From: a virus
Lineage: Duplodnaviria; Caudoviricetes
Reading direction: 5' to 3' (one strand)
IMG/VR virus record: IMGVR_UViG_3300032270_000254
Coordinates: 1 to 30,615 of that record
DNA length: 30,615 nucleotides
Shown: positions 2,959-30,000 of the stretch, piece by piece
Position numbering within the stretch: the stretch's first letter is position 1
How the letters are laid out: each line of letters starts with the position of its first letter
Position numbers and translations under genes: made by a program
Notes under the pieces: generated by a model
Databases searched by the model: none
What the model saw: only the letters and a program-made list of their open reading frames with translations
Told to the model about the DNA's origin: nothing

Positions 2959-3006
2959 GGTAAAAAGTTGTAAAATTTACCTTTGTTATTCGGATAATTA
3001 CCGAAT
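2959..3006. terminator. Possible bidirectional terminator between convergent genes
   Basis: Two weak inverted repeats: GGTAAA/TTTACC (2959-2981) and ATTCGG/CCGAAT (2988-3006). Confidence 0.3.
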
Positions 3007-3266
3007 TAACCGCTAATCTTTAGTAAGATTAGATAACCAATTAAATCGTTTATAACGTCCTCATCGTCACGCTCCAAGCTGCCATTCTTAATCCTTTTTA
3101 GCTTGTCGTCAATCCTAACCAGTAGTCCGTCCTTTGCGGACAACTGACTAAACACGCCCAGGGGTTCCAGCGCCGAGTTACCATATTTAAGATTTTTAGC
3201 AATAAGCAAATCGCGAATTTCTTCCAGCGCTTGCGTTACTTGAACGGCAAATAAATTATTATGCAT
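3006..3266 (-). CDS. DUF1599 / nucleotide-modification-associated domain 1 protein
   Basis: KNxxYGNS...RIxDKLxRI...DxxxDLIGYxxL pattern typical of this family. Confidence 0.75.
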   Translation of the reverse strand: MHNNLFAVQVTQALEEIRDLLIAKNLKYGNSALEPLGVFSQLSAKDGLLVRIDDKLKRIKNGSLERDDEDVINDLIGYLILLKISG

Positions 3267-3277
3267 TTAGAAAAAAT

Positions 3278-3586
3278 TTAATAAGGCAAATTGTCACCAT
3301 ACAAAACCCAAGCATTGTTGGGGTCATTTTCAAAATTCTTTTCTTGGTCATAATGTTTTTTAAATAGTTTAAATTTTCCGCCTTTAATGTATTGGCTGGT
3401 CCTAAATTTTGAGCGTCCCTTTTTAACTAACAAGACGTCAGCAAACAAAACGTAAAACTCGTTTTCAACAACAAGCTCGTTAAACTCCAAATATTGTTGC
3501 CACCAATCCGCTGGCTTTCTGTTTTCGTCCAGCACCTTGGATGCAACCAGGTACCCAAATGGATTTAAAATTTCTGCATTTTCCAT
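3278..3586 (-). CDS. Hypothetical protein
   Basis: Track ORF 3278..3592; the ATG at 3586 (MENAEILNPFGY) is the more plausible start. Confidence 0.65.
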   Translation of the reverse strand: MENAEILNPFGYLVASKVLDENRKPADWWQQYLEFNELVVENEFYVLFADVLLVKKGRSKFRTSQYIKGGKFKLFKKHYDQEKNFENDPNNAWVLYGDNLPY

Positions 3587-3711
3587 GCGCAAGTTAAAAG
3601 CATAAAAAACGACACGAAAAAAAAATGTTTGATTTTGTTAAAAAAAAACTTACTTATTTTTTGGAATATTATTTATAAATGAGAAATTCGCATAAACAAA
3701 ACAACACACCT

Positions 3712-3981
3712 ATGGACAATTACGATTGCGAAACACATTACGACAAAGAGGTAATTTTTGACTATGAGGGCAAAACTTACTATTGGCAAGGCGATTACAC
3801 AGTTACCAACTGGGGCGAAGACCAAAGCGAATACGCGCCAGCCTATGGCGAAACTGAGGTGACAATTGATTACACCGCAAGTTTATCCTATAATGATGAA
3901 CAAACTGACGAGGTAATTGAGGTTAAACCGACACGCAGTTTATTAATGCAAATTGAAATAGAAATTGAACGCAACCTTTAA
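3712..3981 (+). CDS. Acidic hypothetical early protein
   Basis: In-frame ATG at 3712 lies inside the ACACCTATGGA motif shared with two other starts; D/E/Y-rich. Confidence 0.7.
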   Translation: MDNYDCETHYDKEVIFDYEGKTYYWQGDYTVTNWGEDQSEYAPAYGETEVTIDYTASLSYNDEQTDEVIEVKPTRSLLMQIEIEIERNL

Positions 3982-3995
3982 ACAACTAAACACCT

Positions 3996-4547
3996 ATGGA
4001 AAAATCACAAAGTATTCAAAATCTAACCCAAGGCTTGGCTAAGTTCCACGCAATGGTTGGACGGATTAGTAAAGATGCTAAGAATCCGTTTTTTAAGTCC
4101 AATTACGCCAGTTTACCTCACATTATTACAGAGATCAGCGAACCGCTAGAAAAGGCTGGTTTAATCCTTAGTCAGTTTCCAAATGGAGACGGACTTACAA
4201 CGATGCTTATACACGCCGAGAGTGGCGAGTATATTTCGGCAACTTACACGCTTCAGGTAGTTAGGCAAAACGACCCACAAGCGCAAGGCTCGGCTATTAG
4301 TTACGCGAGACGTTACGCAATTACAAGCATTTTAAACCTAGCAATTAGCGACGACGACGGCGAGGCTGCAACCCGACCAGTAAGGCAAGCGCCAGCGGTT
4401 ACAAAGACTAAACCAACAGACGAGCAATTTGCCTACTTGGTTAGATATCTAAACGGAACCGACGCGCAACGCAAGCAAGCCAAAGAGGCTTTGGTAAAAT
4501 ACGAATTAACACAGGAACAATTGGACACTTTAGACGGACTACTTTAA
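3996..4547 (+). CDS. erf: ERF-family single-strand annealing protein (recombinase)
   Basis: KNPFFKSNYASL and QAQGSAISYARRYAI...DDDG signatures. Confidence 0.9.
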   Translation: MEKSQSIQNLTQGLAKFHAMVGRISKDAKNPFFKSNYASLPHIITEISEPLEKAGLILSQFPNGDGLTTMLIHAESGEYISATYTLQVVRQNDPQAQGSAISYARRYAITSILNLAISDDDGEAATRPVRQAPAVTKTKPTDEQFAYLVRYLNGTDAQRKQAKEALVKYELTQEQLDTLDGLL

Positions 4548-5032
4548 TGGCAAGTTTATACGAAATAACTAGGGACGCGCTCAAATTAGCGTCTTTATTG
4601 GAAACCGAAGAATTGACCCCTGAGTTGGAGCAAATGCTAATAATTAACCAGGATCAATTACAAGCAAAGGCTGGCAACTATGCCAAGGTAATTGCAAACA
4701 TCCAAAGCGATGTCGACGCAATTGAGAACGAAATAAAGCGTTTAAAAGCAATGAAAGAAAGTAAGGACAGAGCCATTACAAGGCTAAAGGACGCGGTTAA
4801 AAACGCAATGCTTGTAAGTGGTATCGAAAAAATAGAAAGTCCTTTATTTAAACTTTCAACACGTCGCAGCGAAGCGGTCGAGGTTGACATTATCGAGGCT
4901 TTACCAAACCAATTTTTAAACGTCAAAAACGTAGTAACTGCGGACAAGGTAGCAATTAAGGACGCGATTAAACGTGGCGAAAATGTTTTTGGCGCAAGAA
5001 TAGTTGAAAATTTTAATTTAAATATAAAATGA
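4547..5032 (+). CDS. Siphovirus Gp157-family protein
   Basis: M-xLYEI start, coiled coil EIKRLKAMK, DKxAIKxAIKxGExVxGA near the C-terminus; usual neighbour of ERF. Confidence 0.85.
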   Translation: MASLYEITRDALKLASLLETEELTPELEQMLIINQDQLQAKAGNYAKVIANIQSDVDAIENEIKRLKAMKESKDRAITRLKDAVKNAMLVSGIEKIESPLFKLSTRRSEAVEVDIIEALPNQFLNVKNVVTADKVAIKDAIKRGENVFGARIVENFNLNIK

Positions 5033-5639: not shown

Positions 5640-5658
5640 ACTTTTAAAACAAACACCT

Positions 5659-5952
5659 ATGGAGACGATTAAAATTAAAGCACGCACTTACTCAGAAAAC
5701 GAGTTTGAGATTCCAAAGTATTTTAAAATTGCCCATCATTATTACATGATTTTGGACGACAAAAATTATTTGTTTGTCAAATCAAATATGGACGAGTTTT
5801 TTTTTCCTGAAATTTCAATTGGCAAAATTGAGGCATTTGCAAGCCGCTGGTTTCAATACGTTAAAAGCCAGGATTTAATTGCAATTAGCGAGCAAGAATT
5901 TCGCGACGAATACACAAAAGCAAATGTTTTACTTTTAAACTTTCTTAATTAA
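5659..5952 (+). CDS. Hypothetical early protein
   Basis: In-frame ATG at 5659 inside ACACCTATGGA, preferred over the track TTG at 5602. Confidence 0.7.
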   Translation: METIKIKARTYSENEFEIPKYFKIAHHYYMILDDKNYLFVKSNMDEFFFPEISIGKIEAFASRWFQYVKSQDLIAISEQEFRDEYTKANVLLLNFLN

Positions 5953-6692: not shown

Positions 6693-6712
6693 ATTAAAAA
6701 GAAGTATATTTG
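6685..6712 (+). promoter_or_regulatory. Bacteroidota primary-sigma promoter for the leader RNA and replication operon
   Basis: TTG (6685-6687), 17-nt spacer, TATATTTG (6705-6712). Confidence 0.75.
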
Positions 6713-6720
6713 TATAAATA

Positions 6721-6810
6721 ATGAAACATTTAAGAGGTCGGAGCCTTAGATGTTTCATAGGTGTAAATCCACCAAGGCCCATCGACTCCGACACGATAGG
6801 GCCTTTTTTA
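6721..6810 (+). ncRNA. Structured leader RNA: two hairpins with complementary loops, the second terminator-like
   Basis: 14-bp stem 6721-6734/6745-6758; stem 6774-6784/6794-6805 followed by a T-run; loop GTCGGAG (6737-6743) is complementary to loop CTCCGAC (6786-6792). Confidence 0.75.
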
Positions 6811-6816
6811 TTTGTT

Positions 6817-8904: not shown

Positions 8905-9242
8905 TTGTTTTTAAAATAAACGAAAAGCCTTTAAGCGTCAATTCAGCGTGGCAAGGGAAACGTTTTAAAACGCCTATTTACAAAGAATACGAAAAGGCAA
9001 TGCTTTTGCAAATGCCACCAAAAATTATTGATCCTAACCAAATGCTCAGAGTTGAGTTTTTTTTTGGATTTAGCAACCAGGCGAGTGACTTGGACAACCC
9101 AGTTAAATTATTAATGGACATTGCACAAAAAAAATACGGCTTTAACGATTCAAAAGTTTTCGAGTTAAACGTGCGCAAATGCATTGTAAAGAAAGGCGAC
9201 GAATTTATACAAATGGGCATTTATAATTTATTGCCGTTTTAA
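8901..9242 (+). CDS. rusA: RusA-family Holliday junction resolvase
   Basis: PLSVN near the N-terminus, DLDNPVKLLMD and NDSKV catalytic motifs. Confidence 0.88.
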   Translation: MIVFKINEKPLSVNSAWQGKRFKTPIYKEYEKAMLLQMPPKIIDPNQMLRVEFFFGFSNQASDLDNPVKLLMDIAQKKYGFNDSKVFELNVRKCIVKKGDEFIQMGIYNLLPF

Positions 9243-10613: not shown

Positions 10614-10638
10614 TTATTTTGGGTTTGTTGATGTTTAA

Positions 10639-10668
10639 AAGGCTTGGGTTTTGCTCAAGCTTTTTTTT
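10639..10668 (+). terminator. Rho-independent terminator
   Basis: GCTTGGG/CTCAAGC stem (one G-U pair) followed by T8. Confidence 0.75.
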
Positions 10669-10690
10669 CTAACTTTAAAAAAAAATAAAA

Positions 10691-14191: not shown

Positions 14192-14966
14192 AAAAGATTT
14201 AGCGCTTGCAAAGCAATTGGATGCATTGCAAAGACGTTACGAAAAGCGCTACGAAAAGCAAATTTACACGGCTTTAAAAAAGCAAATGCAACCGTATTTG
14301 GATGCTATTAAACAGGCGGACGGAAATATTAACCGCTTTGATTTAATAACGCCAGCGCCTTTGGCTGACACCTTGGAAAACCTTTACGTTGTGGCTGGCA
14401 CCGCTTACGCCGAGGCAATTTATAACGCAATCCAACCGCCAACAAAAGCAACTAAAGAAGTTTTACGCGCTGGCTGGCGTGACTTTATGCGTTTGTTTGC
14501 AGTTAGAAACTTGCCGCAAACGTTGATAAGCATTAACGAAACCAGCCAAAAGATAATTCGAGCCATTGTACTTGCTGGAATAAATGAAGGCCTTGGCGCC
14601 TTAGAAATAGCCACAAACATTCAACAAAGCATTTCTCTAATATTTAGAAATCGTGCAAAGTTGATTGCTAGGACTGAAATGGTAATAGCAACCAACAACG
14701 CGGCCATGCAATCAGCGGCAACCTCGGATTTTATGTATGAAAAGAAATGGATTCCAGCGACCGACACGCGCACGCGTCCTGATCATGCAGAAATGATGGC
14801 AAAACCTTGGATTCCATTCGACCAAAATTTTATTGTTGGCGGAAATGATATGAGACAACCAGGCGACGGCTCCCAAGGTGCTGGCGCTGACCAAATATGT
14901 AATTGTCGATGCAAGGTTGTTTTTAGAATAATGCGAGACGTTGACGGCTTATTAATTAGAAAATGA
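14175..14966 (+). CDS. Head morphogenesis protein (SPP1 gp7 / Mu gpF family)
   Basis: RAKLIARTE, KKWI...DTRTRPDH, PGD...NCRC. Confidence 0.9.
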   Translation: MPNPTKKDLALAKQLDALQRRYEKRYEKQIYTALKKQMQPYLDAIKQADGNINRFDLITPAPLADTLENLYVVAGTAYAEAIYNAIQPPTKATKEVLRAGWRDFMRLFAVRNLPQTLISINETSQKIIRAIVLAGINEGLGALEIATNIQQSISLIFRNRAKLIARTEMVIATNNAAMQSAATSDFMYEKKWIPATDTRTRPDHAEMMAKPWIPFDQNFIVGGNDMRQPGDGSQGAGADQICNCRCKVVFRIMRDVDGLLIRK

Positions 14967-15541
14967 TTGCTTACGTTATAAACTTGGACCATCGCAAAGA
15001 CAAATGGCGTGCGTCAATGCAAGAATTGTCCCCGCATTTTAATTTGGAACGAGTAAGCGCAATTAAACACGAATGGGGCTGGCTTGGATTATGGCAAACT
15101 TTCAAAAAAATATTTCAAGAATGCAACGGCGACGTTTTAATATTTGAGGACGACGCAACGTTTAGAGGTTGGGCGACTAATTTACAAAACGCAATAAATG
15201 ACTTGCCAGCCGACTGGGATATGTTAATGCTTGGGGCTAATATAAAAGATTCAAGAATTGACCGAATAAGTAAACAATTGGTTAGGACTTACGGCGCTTG
15301 GACAACGCACGCAATACTTTATTCGCATCGCTTTGCAAAGGAAATGGCAAAACTAGATTTAGACGTGCCAATTGACGAATATTTTAGGACAAAGGTCCAT
15401 CCTAAAGGCAACTCTTATATTTGCGTGCCATTCCTATCTTTTCAAAGACCAAGTGAAAGCGACATTGAGGGTAGTTATAAAAATTATACAAGTATATTTG
15501 AAGAAAGCGAAAACAAAGCAATGCATTTTATTAATCAATAA
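14963..15541 (+). CDS. Glycosyltransferase family 25-like (GT-A fold)
   Basis: YVINLxxRxDK, LIFEDDA, WDMLMLG, THAILY, PIDEY. Confidence 0.85.
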   Translation: MIAYVINLDHRKDKWRASMQELSPHFNLERVSAIKHEWGWLGLWQTFKKIFQECNGDVLIFEDDATFRGWATNLQNAINDLPADWDMLMLGANIKDSRIDRISKQLVRTYGAWTTHAILYSHRFAKEMAKLDLDVPIDEYFRTKVHPKGNSYICVPFLSFQRPSESDIEGSYKNYTSIFEESENKAMHFINQ

Positions 15542-16315: not shown

Positions 16316-17518
16316 ATGGACGCAATTAAATCACAATTGGACTCTGTATTGGCTAAATTGGAATCAAACGAAGCTTTGATTTCCGACGTAAAGTCAATGA
16401 AAGAAGCGGGCGAAGAATTCAGAAAATCACTTTCTGCTGAAACCGCAAAATTAAATGAAAAAGCTGACGCCCTACAGGCTCAGTTGGACGGCGTAGATGC
16501 ACGCACCCAGGCTGGTTTTTCTAAGGCTGCAAAAGGTTATTCTTTCTCTAGCGAACTAGAGAAAGCGTTTAACTCTGACGCATTCGGAAACTACAAAAGC
16601 GGAAACGCTAACAAAGTAAAGTTGGACCTTGAATTGAAAGGCGCTGACATGACAGTTGGAAACGCTTACACTGGCGAAGTTATCCCAGCGGATCGCGTTC
16701 CTGATCTTAAGTTTACTCCAAACAGAAAAGTAAACGTTCGTCAGTTGTTGCCAGTTGGACAGACTAGCTCTAACCTTATCCGTTTCGTGCGCGAGTCAGC
16801 TTACGACAACGCTGCGGCTCCAACCGCTCAGGGTTCCCCAAAGCCTCAATCCGATTTCGATTTGACTGCGGTAGATCGTAGCATTCGTACAATCCCTACT
16901 TTCATGAGATTGACAAAAGAAATGTTGGACGATACCCCAGGGCTTATCGCTTACCTTTCTAGCCGCGCTCCTAGCAAATTGTTGAACGTTGAAGATACCC
17001 AGCTTTTGTACGGAAGCGGTATTGGTCAGAACTTGAACGGTTTTGCAACTGACGGATCAGCTTGGACAACAGTTAAATTTGGCACACTAATTAACAGATT
17101 TGACGTTTTGGCTGCTGCGGTTGTTCAAACAACTAAAAACGAATACGCGCCAAACGCAATCATGATTAACCCATCTGACTATTTGCAGTTAGTATCTGTT
17201 AAAGAAAGCACTGGTGGTTACATTATCCCTTCTTATGTTACCATGTCAGCTGGTCAAATGTTTATCTTGGGCGTTCCAGTTTACGCAATCAATGGCGTTG
17301 TTGCTGGCGATTTCTTCGTTGGAGACTTTGCACTTGGTTCCCAGTTGTTCGTTCGTCAGGGCATCACGCTTGAATTCTTCGAGCAAGACGCTGATAACGT
17401 AACTAAGAACTTTGTAACCGTACGCGTTGAGGAAAGAATTGCATTGGCAGTTTATACAACTCAATCCATCGTTTACGGAACATTTGCAGCCGCTTTGGCT
17501 AACGGTTCCGCAGTATAA
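16316..17518 (+). CDS. HK97-fold major capsid protein
   Basis: N-terminal coiled-coil delta domain; EDTQLLYGSG, ILGVPV, VGDF, NFVTVRVEER motifs; codon usage consistent with high expression. Confidence 0.95.
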   Translation: MDAIKSQLDSVLAKLESNEALISDVKSMKEAGEEFRKSLSAETAKLNEKADALQAQLDGVDARTQAGFSKAAKGYSFSSELEKAFNSDAFGNYKSGNANKVKLDLELKGADMTVGNAYTGEVIPADRVPDLKFTPNRKVNVRQLLPVGQTSSNLIRFVRESAYDNAAAPTAQGSPKPQSDFDLTAVDRSIRTIPTFMRLTKEMLDDTPGLIAYLSSRAPSKLLNVEDTQLLYGSGIGQNLNGFATDGSAWTTVKFGTLINRFDVLAAAVVQTTKNEYAPNAIMINPSDYLQLVSVKESTGGYIIPSYVTMSAGQMFILGVPVYAINGVVAGDFFVGDFALGSQLFVRQGITLEFFEQDADNVTKNFVTVRVEERIALAVYTTQSIVYGTFAAALANGSAV

Positions 17519-17544
17519 GTAAATAGGTGTTTAGTTTGATTAAG

Positions 17545-17573
17545 GCCCCGACAAATCGTCGGGGCTTTTTTTT
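17545..17573 (+). terminator. Rho-independent terminator after the capsid gene
   Basis: GCCCCGAC-AAATC-GTCGGGGC followed by T8. Confidence 0.92.
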
Positions 17574-17620: not shown

Positions 17621-18607
17621 ATGAATATCGTTTTTTTTGTACACGCATGGGCGGGAACCCATAACTCGGGGGCAGAGTGGACCGTTCAGCATTATGCAAA
17701 ATTTTTCCACGAAAAAGGATGCAATATTGAAGTTATTTTACCCGAGGGTCAAATTTATCCCGACGGCGAAAAGTTTGCTTTTATAAAATTTATTACTGGC
17801 TATTATTCAAATGACTTTTTCCTAGCCTTACAAAATGCAAGCGTAATATTTACCCATTTAGACAATACAGGCGTTGCGATTAATTGGGCAAAACAATTTA
17901 AAAAGCAATTGATTTTTTTAAGCCACAACGATTCCGATTATAGAAACGTGCGATTTAAAGCGCAAAACATTCACGTTGTTTACAACAATAAAGCAAACGA
18001 AAAGAATTTACAAAACGGGCCTTACCCTAATCAGTCAATTGTTTGCAAGCCTCCAATATTTCCTGAGGACGTAAAATATAACCGTAAACATGGCCAATAT
18101 ATTACCCTAATCAATTGCAACGAAAATAAGGGCGGTCAAATATTAATTGAATTGGCAAAGCGATTGCCAAAGCGCAAATTTCTTGGCGTGCTTGGTAGTT
18201 ACGGCGAGCAAATTATTGACGACACACTAAAAAATTTAAAGTATGTCGCACAAACGCCTGACGTGCATTTAATCTATGGCAAAACCAACATTGTTCTTGT
18301 ACCATCATTTTACGAATCCTATGGACGTGTAGGTTTGGAGGCGGCGATTAATCGACTCCCAGTTATTTGCACCCCAACAGACGGATTAAAGGAATGTCTT
18401 GGCGCCGCTGGCCTTTACTTTGATCGCAACGACATTGACGGCATGGCTGCAAAAATTGAGGAATTAATGAGTGACGAAATACTTTACGATTTCCATCAAA
18501 ACATAATGCGAAATCTTGCTGAGGAACGCCTTAAATACCAGGACCAAGAATTAGAAAGATTCTTTAATTTTATCGTTGACAAAGCAAAGAAACAATACAA
18601 TGAGTGA
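17621..18607 (+). CDS. Glycosyltransferase family 4-like (GT-B fold)
   Basis: SGAE N-terminal loop, KG motif, VPSFYESYGRVGLEAA...PVI (Ex7E). Confidence 0.9.
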   Translation: MNIVFFVHAWAGTHNSGAEWTVQHYAKFFHEKGCNIEVILPEGQIYPDGEKFAFIKFITGYYSNDFFLALQNASVIFTHLDNTGVAINWAKQFKKQLIFLSHNDSDYRNVRFKAQNIHVVYNNKANEKNLQNGPYPNQSIVCKPPIFPEDVKYNRKHGQYITLINCNENKGGQILIELAKRLPKRKFLGVLGSYGEQIIDDTLKNLKYVAQTPDVHLIYGKTNIVLVPSFYESYGRVGLEAAINRLPVICTPTDGLKECLGAAGLYFDRNDIDGMAAKIEELMSDEILYDFHQNIMRNLAEERLKYQDQELERFFNFIVDKAKKQYNE

Positions 18608-21733: not shown

Positions 21734-22092
21734 CATTTAGAGACGTTTGCCATTATGCCATTGGGGAGTTAGGTATTCAACCTGACTCCTTTTATTTTAT
21801 GTCTTTTGCTGAATACCAGTCGATTGCCTATGGTCACCAAATGAGACAAAGCAAAGAGGAAAATTTATTTAGGACGCTTTGGGTGCAGTTAAATAATGTG
21901 AACGTTACAAAAAAATCAGACTTAATTAAAAAGCCCGATAAATACTGGCGCATTCCTTTATTGGATGGTAAACCTATTGTTATTCCGACCGCTGAGGAGA
22001 AAGCCAAGGCTTACGAAATTGGCAAACAATGGCAAAACCTTAAATTTGAAGAAGAAGCAAATTTTGACACAGTAAATAAGACCATAAAATGA
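21730..22092 (+). CDS. Tail assembly chaperone gpT part (expressed as a gpGT fusion)
   Basis: -1 frame containing the typical LGxxPxxFxxMxxxE motif upstream of the track ATG at 21799. Confidence 0.8.
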   Translation: MTFRDVCHYAIGELGIQPDSFYFMSFAEYQSIAYGHQMRQSKEENLFRTLWVQLNNVNVTKKSDLIKKPDKYWRIPLLDGKPIVIPTAEEKAKAYEIGKQWQNLKFEEEANFDTVNKTIK

Positions 22093-27094: not shown

Positions 27095-30000
27095 ATGGCA
27101 AATAGAAGGTTTATAGATTTTCCCATTGCGGCAAGTGTTGGCGACAATGATATTGTTTTAATTTGGCAAGACGGACTAAATAAACAGACGACCAAGGCAA
27201 CGCTTTTGCAAGGGTCGCCACAAAGTTTGGCTGGATTAACAGACGTTGACATTGCGGGCCTAACCAATGGTCAGATATTGCAATACAATAGCACCTTGGG
27301 CAAATGGGAAAACGTAGATAGGACCGACATAAATTTAAGCGAGTTGGGAGACGTTACGATTGTGGCGCCAACCAATGGCCAGGTTTTGGTTTATAATTCG
27401 TCAACGTCTAAATGGGAAAACTCAAGCGGCGGTTATGTCCCTTATACTGGCGCAGTTACAACGGTTAACCTTGGCGCTCAATCCATTTTGGCTGGAACTT
27501 TTGTAAAGGCTGGCGGAACATCTGCACAATTTCTAAAGGCGGACGGCTCGGTTGATTCCACGGCGTACGGGACTGGTTCGGTTACCTCAGTAGGTCTAAC
27601 AATGCCAAGCGCTTTTAACGTTGCAAATAGTCCAATAACAACCAACGGAACTTTGGCCGTTACTGGCGCGGGAACTGTTGCCCAATACATTCGAGGCGAC
27701 GGCTCTTTGGCCGATTTCCCAGCAACTACTGGAGGTGGTGCGTCAGTTAGTTACTATTTAAACGGATCAGTAAGCCAAGGCACAATCGGAGGCGTTGCTT
27801 ATCGCGAGGTTAACAGAAATCCAGTTTTTGGGGCTGGAACTGACATAAGCATAAGTTCAAACGGCTACATTGCCAACTTTATAACCGATGCTGGCGACCC
27901 AAATAAACTAGAAATTCCCGCTGGTAATTGGAATTTAGAAACCTACTTTAGCGCGTCAAGTGGTGGCGGTAATCCGTCTTTTTATGTTGAATTGTACAAA
28001 TACAATGGCTCAACCTTTACCTTAATTGCATCCAGCGCAACGTCGCCTGAATTAATTGCATTTGGCACAAACATAAACCCATATTTCAGCACGTTAGCGG
28101 TGCCACAAACAACGCTGGCTTTAACAGATAGGTTGGCGTTAAGGTATTACGTTAATACGTCTGGGCGTACAATTACCTTGCATACGGAAAACGGACACCT
28201 ATGCCAAGTTATTACTACGTTTACAACTGGCTTGACTGCATTAAATGGTTTAACTAGCCAAGTGCAATTCTTTGCGGTTGGGACTAGCGGAACGGACTTT
28301 GCCATTTCTAGCGCGACCGATACCCATACCTTTAATCTCCCGACTGCAAGTGCTGTTAATAGAGGTGCATTAAGTGCAGTTGATTGGAGCACATTCAATA
28401 GCAAGCAGAACGCAATTACTCTTACCACAACAGGTACAAGTGGGGCAGCTACATTGGTAGGTAGTACTTTAAATATTCCGCAATATCAGGCGGCTGGAAC
28501 TTATGTAACCTCGGTAACTGCGTCAACACCTTTAGCGTCTAGCGGAGGTACAACGCCAAATATTACAATCCAACAGGCAAGCGGCTCACAAAATGGATTC
28601 CTATCTAGCACAGATTGGACAACATTTAATAGCAAACAGAACGCTTTAACGAATCCAGTAACGGGAACGGGAACAAGCGGCCAAGTTGCTTACTTTAACG
28701 GCACGACAACAATTACCAGCGAATCCAACTTATTTTGGGATGCGACAAATGACAGGCTTGGAATTGGAACAAGTTCGCCAAGTTATACTTTACAATCTAA
28801 AGGCAATGGATTTGCAGTACAAGGAAATAATTTAAACCAAGGCAATACAATTCGTTTTTTAAGAGAAAGCGGCACTGAAATGGCTTATATTGGCTGGAGT
28901 ACTGAGGCTGCAAATAATTCAACTTGGCTTTTTAAATCTAGTAATGGTAACCCAATTGGATTTATTGCGGATGGGACAACTCAGGCTTTAACTTTAACCG
29001 CAACAAATAACCTACTTGTTGGCACAACCACAGACGCTGGTTATAAACTAGACGTTGCTGGTACTTTAAGGTCTACTGGACGGGCATTGTTAGGTAACTC
29101 AATGTTTGTTGGTGAAGTTTCAGGTTCCTATTCAATTATTGAAACAACTGGAAGCAATGGAATTTGGTTAAGACCAGCTGGAGTTTCCTCACCTAGTGGA
29201 ATGTTTTTAACCTCAGGCGGCAACCTACTTGTCGGCACAACAACGGATGCTGGCTATAAACTAGACGTTAACGGAACTGGGCGGTTTAGTGGTGCCGATG
29301 GAGCAGATTTAATTAGATATAACGCAACTGGAGTAAACACAAATTTTGCAACTAAAATAGTAAGTGGCGCAAACGATGTTTTAGTTTTTAGAAGGCAACA
29401 TTCTAGCGTTGGAGCCTTAGATATAATGGCCCTTGGATTTAACGGCAACGTTGGGATTGGGACAAGTTCGCCAGGTCAAAAACTACAAGTTGATGGCAGT
29501 TTATTGGTAAATGCTGGAACATCTGCAACGGCTTATAGGGATATAATGATGGGAGGTATTGGTGGATGGTCAACTGGAGAATCTCACGGCATAGATACTG
29601 TTTACAATACTTCGTCAAGTCCAACAACTTTTTCAAGAATTGAGTCTCATTTTGATGGAACTAGTGGACGTTTTAGATTTAGGAATTTGTTTTTTAATTC
29701 TTCGCCTAGAACCGATATTTTAATGACAATTGAAGGCAATGGAAACGTGCTGATTGGAACGACAACAGACGCTGGCTATAAGCTAGACGTTAACGGAACT
29801 GGTCGGTTTAGTAATATTTTAGTTGCTAATAGCGATATTCACCAAGTTTCAACTGGTGGATTATATTGGGGTGCAGCTTCAACTTATGTTATTGGAGTTA
29901 CTGGAAACACGGCTAATGGTAATTTATCTTTTATAACTGGAAGCACGGTTAAGGCTACAATAACCTCAGGCGGCAACATTGGGATTGGGACAAGTTCGCC

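Follow-up and report, generated by a model that had tools for sequence, protein, structure and literature searches.

The mRNA of the major capsid protein gene in this phage carries a short, G/U-rich 3' tail complementary to the start regions of several early genes of the same phage. This tail is a real, conserved and co-varying feature: it matches early starts beyond what its composition predicts, is specific to early genes, is kept among relatives and changes in step with the start motifs of each lineage. Read from the sequences, the end of the capsid mRNA, either whole or as a decay fragment, probably damps early translation late in infection, a reading favored because the duplex would mask adenines that promote initiation and because the sRNA GibS provides a precedent in the Bacteroidota.

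The window, the whole stretch of DNA analyzed here, is a complete 30.6-kb virus record from an uncultured freshwater phage. Almost every gene is on the + strand, in the order of lysis genes, early block, and then terminase, portal, protease, HK97 capsid, and tail genes, with the early block encoding ERF, Gp157/Gam-like, HTH, Lin1244_N replication, and RusA-like proteins. Start regions are A-rich and G-poor across the family (9-12% G in the 20 nt upstream), which points to a Bacteroidota host. Scans of bacterial genomes with the capsid and ERF proteins returned only matches of 29-42% identity from mixed taxa, and a close cultured relative was absent among the INPHARED phages (all <60% identical, 33% being the top value among the matches listed); a terminase-centered scan recovered mainly short contigs and was set aside. 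Several other elements of the genome stand out, including two minus-strand ORFs (86 and 104 aa; 3006-3592) located between the lysis genes and the early block and divergent from the early genes, two glycosyltransferase genes (14963-15541 and 17621-18607) that flank the protease and capsid genes within the head module and suggest virion glycosylation, and a hairpin with a U-run (21760-21800), conserved in many relatives between the tail-chaperone gene and the next ORF, that resembles a frameshift or read-through element more than an operon end. The features that bear on the pairing are as follows (all on the + strand; energies in kcal/mol):

16316..17518, +, HK97-type major capsid protein gene, 400 aa (PHROG 10, E 4e-52; Pfam Phage_capsid, E 2.5e-35)
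17519..17541, +, 3' tail, 23 nt, C-free and G/U-rich (17523-17536 pair, of which about 17523-17532 form the conserved core)
17542..17573, +, intrinsic terminator hairpin and U-run (11-pair stem at 17542-17568, then T's)
3984..3997, +, best predicted target, the ERF start from -12 to +2 (14 bp, -19.2; -15.6 after opening costs)
3996..4547, +, ERF single-strand annealing protein gene (PHROG 155/2324; Pfam ERF)
4547..5032, +, Gp157/Gam-like gene, its start overlapping the ERF stop (profile matches)
5647..5660, +, second predicted target, the start of the 97-aa gene 5659-5952 (-15.5; 14 bp with a 1-nt bulge)
3699..3713, +, third predicted target, the start of the 89-aa gene 3712-3981 (-13.7)

The tail sits between the capsid stop codon and the intrinsic terminator, as in 3'UTR-derived sRNAs, with a predicted opening cost of about 2.6 kcal/mol, and the predicted duplex stops about 5 nt short of the terminator stem. 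An internal promoter for a separate tail RNA is unsupported; a Bacteroidota -7 motif was unmatched within 400 nt of the capsid stop, though phage late promoters may differ, and synonymous diversity does not drop at the capsid 3' end (0.26-0.34 against a mean of 0.31). The Rfam models (GcvB, DapZ, C4, and others) gave four matches in the window, all below the gathering score and driven by the terminator. Three metatranscriptome runs (0.05 of words each; contigs only) hold pieces of the capsid region of relatives, one ending at 17529, and as assembled RNA contigs these are uninformative on RNA ends, strand, or level.

The first-pass annotation had reported that the capsid tail is antisense to early starts, and each of its named matches was recovered. 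Positions 17523-17536 are the exact 14-nt reverse complement of 3984-3997, and the extended stretch 17523-17545 matches 3975-3997 at 19 of 23 positions. The 10-nt match at 5651-5660 grows to 14 bp once a 1-nt bulge is allowed, and the 8-nt match at 3706-3713 is also present. All of these matches span the bases upstream of an ATG together with its AT (starts at 3996, 5659, and 3712). When the tail was paired with all 46 start windows (-25 to +6, with starts called by a script favoring A-rich upstream sequence), the three best duplexes were those with the named early starts, and adding opening costs left this order unchanged, at -15.6, -12.4, and -9.8, followed by -7.1 for the fourth. The start of the capsid gene itself (16316) falls outside the top 12 of the 46, so that intramolecular pairing of the icaR type was rejected. 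A cis-antisense arrangement of the OOP or Sar type was excluded as well, as the targets lie 12-14 kb from the tail in other transcription units and the pairing is 8-14 nt in length.

Dinucleotide shuffles of the 23-nt tail were used to gauge chance. A match of at least 14 nt arose in 22 of 5000 shuffles anywhere on the + strand and in 7 of 5000 inside the 46 start windows, and the mean energy of the top three duplexes (-16.1 kcal/mol, compared to -11.4 when shuffled) was reached by 0 of 400. The complementarity thus exceeds composition-matched shuffles, one of the two computational checks that had been proposed earlier. The shorter matches of 8-10 nt are present, but are not significant alone; four starts are matched at ≥8 nt, a count equalled in 789 of 5000 shuffles, and for this reason they count only as part of the set. 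Among 427 ATG windows that are not starts, three reach the energy of the third target and none that of the first. Elsewhere in the window, a site within the RusA-like gene (8953-8983) pairs at -18.9, almost equal to the ERF start at -19.2, and a fourth copy of the shared 8-mer is inside the tail-fiber gene at 28195.

Comparison of 80 capsid loci (88-98% identical) placed ATAGGTG within 40 nt of the capsid stop in 57. The shorter ATAGGT is kept in 62 of 67 distinct in-register sequences, 13 of them as a second allele, while the remaining five carry a change of one seed G to A; a search for the pattern of the G-to-A allele returned six viral contigs and one metagenome contig, all <6.2 kb and none extending to the early genes. 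Across the same set, the sequence of the terminator stem has been replaced several times and the seed retained. The 14-nt complementarity described for the window is real there, but its length is not conserved: in the 10 genomes that combine the window tail class with a called ERF start, exact complementarity runs to 14 nt in one, 13 nt in four, 10 nt in four, and 7 nt in one, leaving a shared core of about 10 nt.

For a whole-genome test, the window was joined by 50 of 64 virus records, picked for length and module diversity. The terminator of the capsid operon was found by script in 49 of the 51 genomes and read by hand in the remaining two; for G049 and G050, the limits of the tail were set manually. 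The tails contain at most one C in 47 of 49 cases. In 41 of 51 genomes, the tail outperforms its dinucleotide shuffles at z ≤ -2 (z ≤ -3 in 27), and the other 10 miss the z ≤ -2 threshold. Early genes, assigned by position, account for 130 of 150 top-three targets compared to a 46% early share of all starts, a count that omits G051, where the early block could not be delimited; early and late starts are nearly alike in base composition. The early block of G051 contains several consecutive small genes that each follow the same start repeat of roughly 25 nt, in the manner of a cassette array. The most frequent top-three targets are the starts of the ERF cluster (28 of 41 genomes), the 97-aa cluster (22/39), and a 33-aa gene (10/20), followed by an HTH gene (8/37) and the 89-aa cluster (7/38); the 97-aa gene of the window (5659-5952) has no PHROG or Pfam family. 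The duplex covers positions -2 to +2 in 76 of 153 cases; the corresponding figure among shuffles is 312 of 918, which makes the enrichment moderate.

Set beside the window, five records (G054-G060) reveal strong modularity in the family: recombination joins three virion modules with at least three early blocks, one of which is on the opposite strand. The virion modules encode the capsid of the window, a 423-aa capsid with 25-27% identity to it, or an unrelated probable capsid with a 167-aa gene. In this third module, the tail sits after the 167-aa gene that follows the probable capsid. The probable capsid has no PDB or Pfam match and is assigned from gene order, PHROG 1623 (E 2.7e-4), and its atlas neighbors (Phage_capsid on 25% of the members of one cluster); the gene after it is a candidate for a tail tube. 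Four early start motifs occur among the compared genomes, and ERF-type genes that are merely 36-51% identical have a start motif in common. The match between tail and early starts extends over all three virion modules, the four start motifs, and early genes in either orientation.

Covariation was assessed by pairing every tail with the early starts of every genome. Tails favor the early starts of their own genome, with a negative own-genome residual in 47 of 50 (naive p 5e-5), and the preference holds within start-motif classes (p 0.0012, n = 26; p 0.0018, n = 13), with two small classes weak (p 0.045, n = 6; p 0.25, n = 5), these p-values being optimistic for genomes that are related and mosaic and that amount to about four independent comparisons between lineages. 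When a single genome represents each tail allele, 26 of 28 residuals are negative (within-class p 0.0012). Two genomes, G054 and G019, have two unlike copies of the capsid end each and are possibly chimeric assemblies; a first run with the partial copy of G054, the worst fit, gave 43 of 49 negative (within-class p 4.5e-4), and later runs used its full-length copy, a good fit, and kept the first copy of G019, a poor fit. For each of the six tail classes, the strongest pairing is with a start class that occurs together with it, and in the five genomes with early genes on the opposite strand, the tail remains antisense to the early mRNA, with energies reaching -28 kcal/mol. The other check proposed earlier, co-variation of the UTR with the early start motif in related phages, therefore also came out in favor, with complementarity that is kept and lineage-matched. 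Behind the 423-aa capsid (26% identical), the ATAGG seed is present in 16 of 90 rows and requires six changes on the tree of that capsid, by either convergence or recombination. Seven mosaic genomes combine the 423-aa module with a window-type early block and have a tail class that better fits another lineage (class means of -20.0 with the starts of that lineage compared to -15.0); three of the seven have little or no signal (z 0.4, -0.3, and -1.1).

Within the same genomes, the last 30 coding nt of the capsid-operon genes reach z ≤ -2 in 0 of 28 cases. A second tail of similar composition served as an internal control:

10614..10638, +, second C-free, G/U-rich tail, followed by a terminator and located downstream of the 83-aa gene where the early block ends

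Across the 23 genomes that carry it, this second tail has no consistent start-region target (mean z -0.29; z ≤ -2 in 4). Together with its terminator (10614-10670), it gains an ATAGGTT stretch in two genomes. Terminator tails from bacteria (n = 20, from 400 kb of three genomes of the phylum of a Bacteroidetes-titled record, a small sample that is not the true host and was scored with mononucleotide shuffles) have a mean z of -0.51, with two at z ≤ -2, none at z ≤ -3, and no C depletion. By eye, no phage-type G/U tract was present in 30 bacterial groEL tails, where two are C-poor but A-rich; many of these genomes use Shine-Dalgarno sites and are therefore imperfect proxies for the host.

Also within the early region, a structured leader (6705-6816; fold z -4.6) lies upstream of the replication gene (likely start 6817) and is composed of a promoter-like motif, a long hairpin, a small hairpin, and a terminator-like hairpin. 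The first hairpin has a loop complementary to the terminator-like hairpin. Loop and hairpin vary in concert in four or more sequence versions across the relatives, a pattern suggestive of an attenuator or a pseudoknot that controls replication. The leader has no Rfam match.

In the proposed mechanism, the capsid mRNA, expected to be abundant and late, would base-pair through its tail with the early mRNAs of the same phage at their start regions. The duplex would span about -12 to +2, with both partners predicted to be accessible, and would block ribosome loading, lowering the output of the ERF recombinase and neighboring early proteins; the Gp157/Gam-like gene would be hit indirectly if its translation is coupled to that of ERF. 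The active species would be the full-length mRNA end or a decay fragment of it, as opposed to a separately promoted RNA. The host is likely a member of the Bacteroidota without Shine-Dalgarno use, in which the masked region would hold positive determinants of initiation. In Flavobacterium johnsoniae, A at -3, -6, -12, and -13 promotes initiation (PMC6847099), and a duplex over -12 to +2 would cover these adenines. Bacteroides is described as having no obvious Hfq or ProQ (PMC7366714). The effect is probably fine-tuning and not an essential switch, since mosaic genomes with poorly matched tails exist. The silencing of several early genes put forward in the first-pass annotation is partly supported, both computational checks having come out in its favor, but it would act through a conserved core of about 10 nt, not 14. 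The predicted targets also go beyond recombination functions and take in small uncharacterized early proteins as well as an HTH regulator in one lineage.

Among the alternatives, the one given the most weight, and still unlikely, is that no functional pairing exists and that lineage-specific, strand-symmetric low-complexity repeats make A/C-rich starts mirror G/U-rich tails, the starts being selected for initiation and the tails for something else. Both elements are of low complexity, a second C-free G/U tail occurs in 23 genomes, the counts of 8-nt matches are within chance, and mismatched mosaics exist. However, composition-preserving shuffles fall short in 41 of 51 genomes, late starts of the same composition are not targeted, the second G/U tail has no signal, and the bacterial tails are not C-free. 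The 8-mer occurs 51 times at called starts compared to 18 elsewhere and its complement 13 times in the capsid tail compared to 4 elsewhere, and the targets carry C at -3, contrary to the A-3 preference (PMC6847099) and unlike what would be expected from initiation alone. Slightly less likely is that the pairing is real but acts mainly against other RNAs, either the early mRNAs of superinfecting relatives, as a form of exclusion, or A/C-rich host starts. The matching signal is mostly at the level of lineage (within-class permutation mean -2.06 of an observed -2.77), one bacterial groES start, among those listed, ends in a similar motif, and the phage RNA STnc6030 is described as excluding superinfection by pairing (PMC12197685); own-genome matching is nonetheless still above the within-class permutation (p 0.0012).

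The effect may also run in the reverse direction, with early mRNAs binding the capsid tail, altering its stability or termination, and delaying capsid expression, though this is improbable. Complementarity itself is directionless, and mRNA-mRNA pairing that alters stability is known for hly-prsA2 (PMC7821165), but on the early side start codons are masked, on the capsid side merely spacer, and a single tail matches many starts. More doubtful still is a protein-binding site at the DNA level, one that would act in either orientation as a mark of early starts and of the capsid terminator. Several HTH proteins are among the phage products, and a further copy of the complement occurs in the replication-gene leader at 6757, but the motif is non-palindromic, its orientation tracks transcription even with an inverted early block, with the sense form at starts and the antisense form in the tail, the matches involve bulges and G-U pairs, and the 6757 copy belongs to a local RNA structure, with this form in only three genomes of its class. 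Largely refuted is the notion that an antisense ORF begins in the tail or that the tail anneals to the 3' end of 16S rRNA. A 92-codon antisense frame does open at the seed in the window, but it begins at ATT, and among the 59 sequences listed such frames are mostly 8-19 codons; similarly, the window allele reaches -8.7 kcal/mol when paired to a 16S tail, but for most other alleles the value is only -2.6 to -7.5.

The favored reading, damping of early translation by the capsid mRNA end, has relatives among known regulatory RNAs. The seed of GcvB is G/U-rich, and DapZ resembles GcvB. Like GcvB, the capsid tail has a G/U-rich, unstructured seed that would mask C/A-rich sequence upstream of the starts of several mRNAs. 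GcvB target sites hold translation-enhancing ACA motifs (PMC3879156). Unlike GcvB, the tail has targets without Shine-Dalgarno sites and its duplex reaches the AUG; it also has no sequence homology to GcvB (no Rfam match at gathering level) and is not a free-standing sRNA gene. Trans-acting RNAs derived from or borne on 3'UTRs include CpxQ, SdhX, DapZ, and MicL, with RNAIII and the hly 3'UTR acting as whole mRNAs (PMC9438474, PMC7821165). As a stop-to-terminator stretch predicted to pair with the initiation regions of several mRNAs, the capsid tail is similar; it differs from these RNAs in being phage-encoded, only 23 nt long, aimed at the phage's own early genes, known from sequence alone, and in a host likely without Hfq (as stated for Bacteroides in PMC7366714). 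GibS, an sRNA of Bacteroides thetaiotaomicron, represses by pairing over start codons. The capsid tail resembles it in that a single-stranded seed would cover start codons in a phylum that does not use Shine-Dalgarno pairing; GibS, by contrast, is transcribed from its own promoter in a host intergenic region and has its seed at the 5' end (PMC7366714). In Staphylococcus aureus, a motif in the icaR 3'UTR pairs with the initiation region in its own 5'UTR and blocks translation (PMC3868564); the capsid tail motif is likewise complementary to initiation regions, but icaR acts on its own mRNA and the tail on targets 12-14 kb away in other transcription units.

Phage RNAs that regulate genes of their own phage include C4 of P1/P7 (PMC5320573) and Sar, OOP, and aQ (PMC12197685; see also 10.1101/2024.10.31.621285), and the capsid tail would similarly control the phage's own genes at ribosome-binding regions. 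As these sources describe them, C4 is a structured, RNase P-processed immunity RNA (PMC5320573), whose model the tail does not match, Sar, OOP, and aQ are cis-antisense (PMC12197685), and none of the four is a capsid-mRNA tail or a late-to-early feedback. Full-text searches covering the main texts of open-licence papers returned no case of a capsid tail acting from late to early genes; the review PMC12197685 has a supplementary table of 38 uncharacterised phage sRNAs.

How small lytic phages without a dedicated repressor or sigma factor switch off their early genes is poorly known. If the favored reading is true, a capsid mRNA doubling as an antisense regulator would tie virion output to early shut-off, would provide a regulatory reason for lineage-specific tags before early starts in hosts without Shine-Dalgarno use, and would place an extra compatibility constraint on module swapping among mosaic phages; the natural pairs of tail and start alleles are ready material for compensatory tests. 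Extrapolated from these sequences to lytic phages in general, the case is evenly poised that the tail of the capsid-operon mRNA may serve as a protein-free late-to-early feedback, one that would have evolved or been readjusted repeatedly behind virion modules that are unrelated, tracking the early start tag of each lineage and turning down recombination and regulatory genes.
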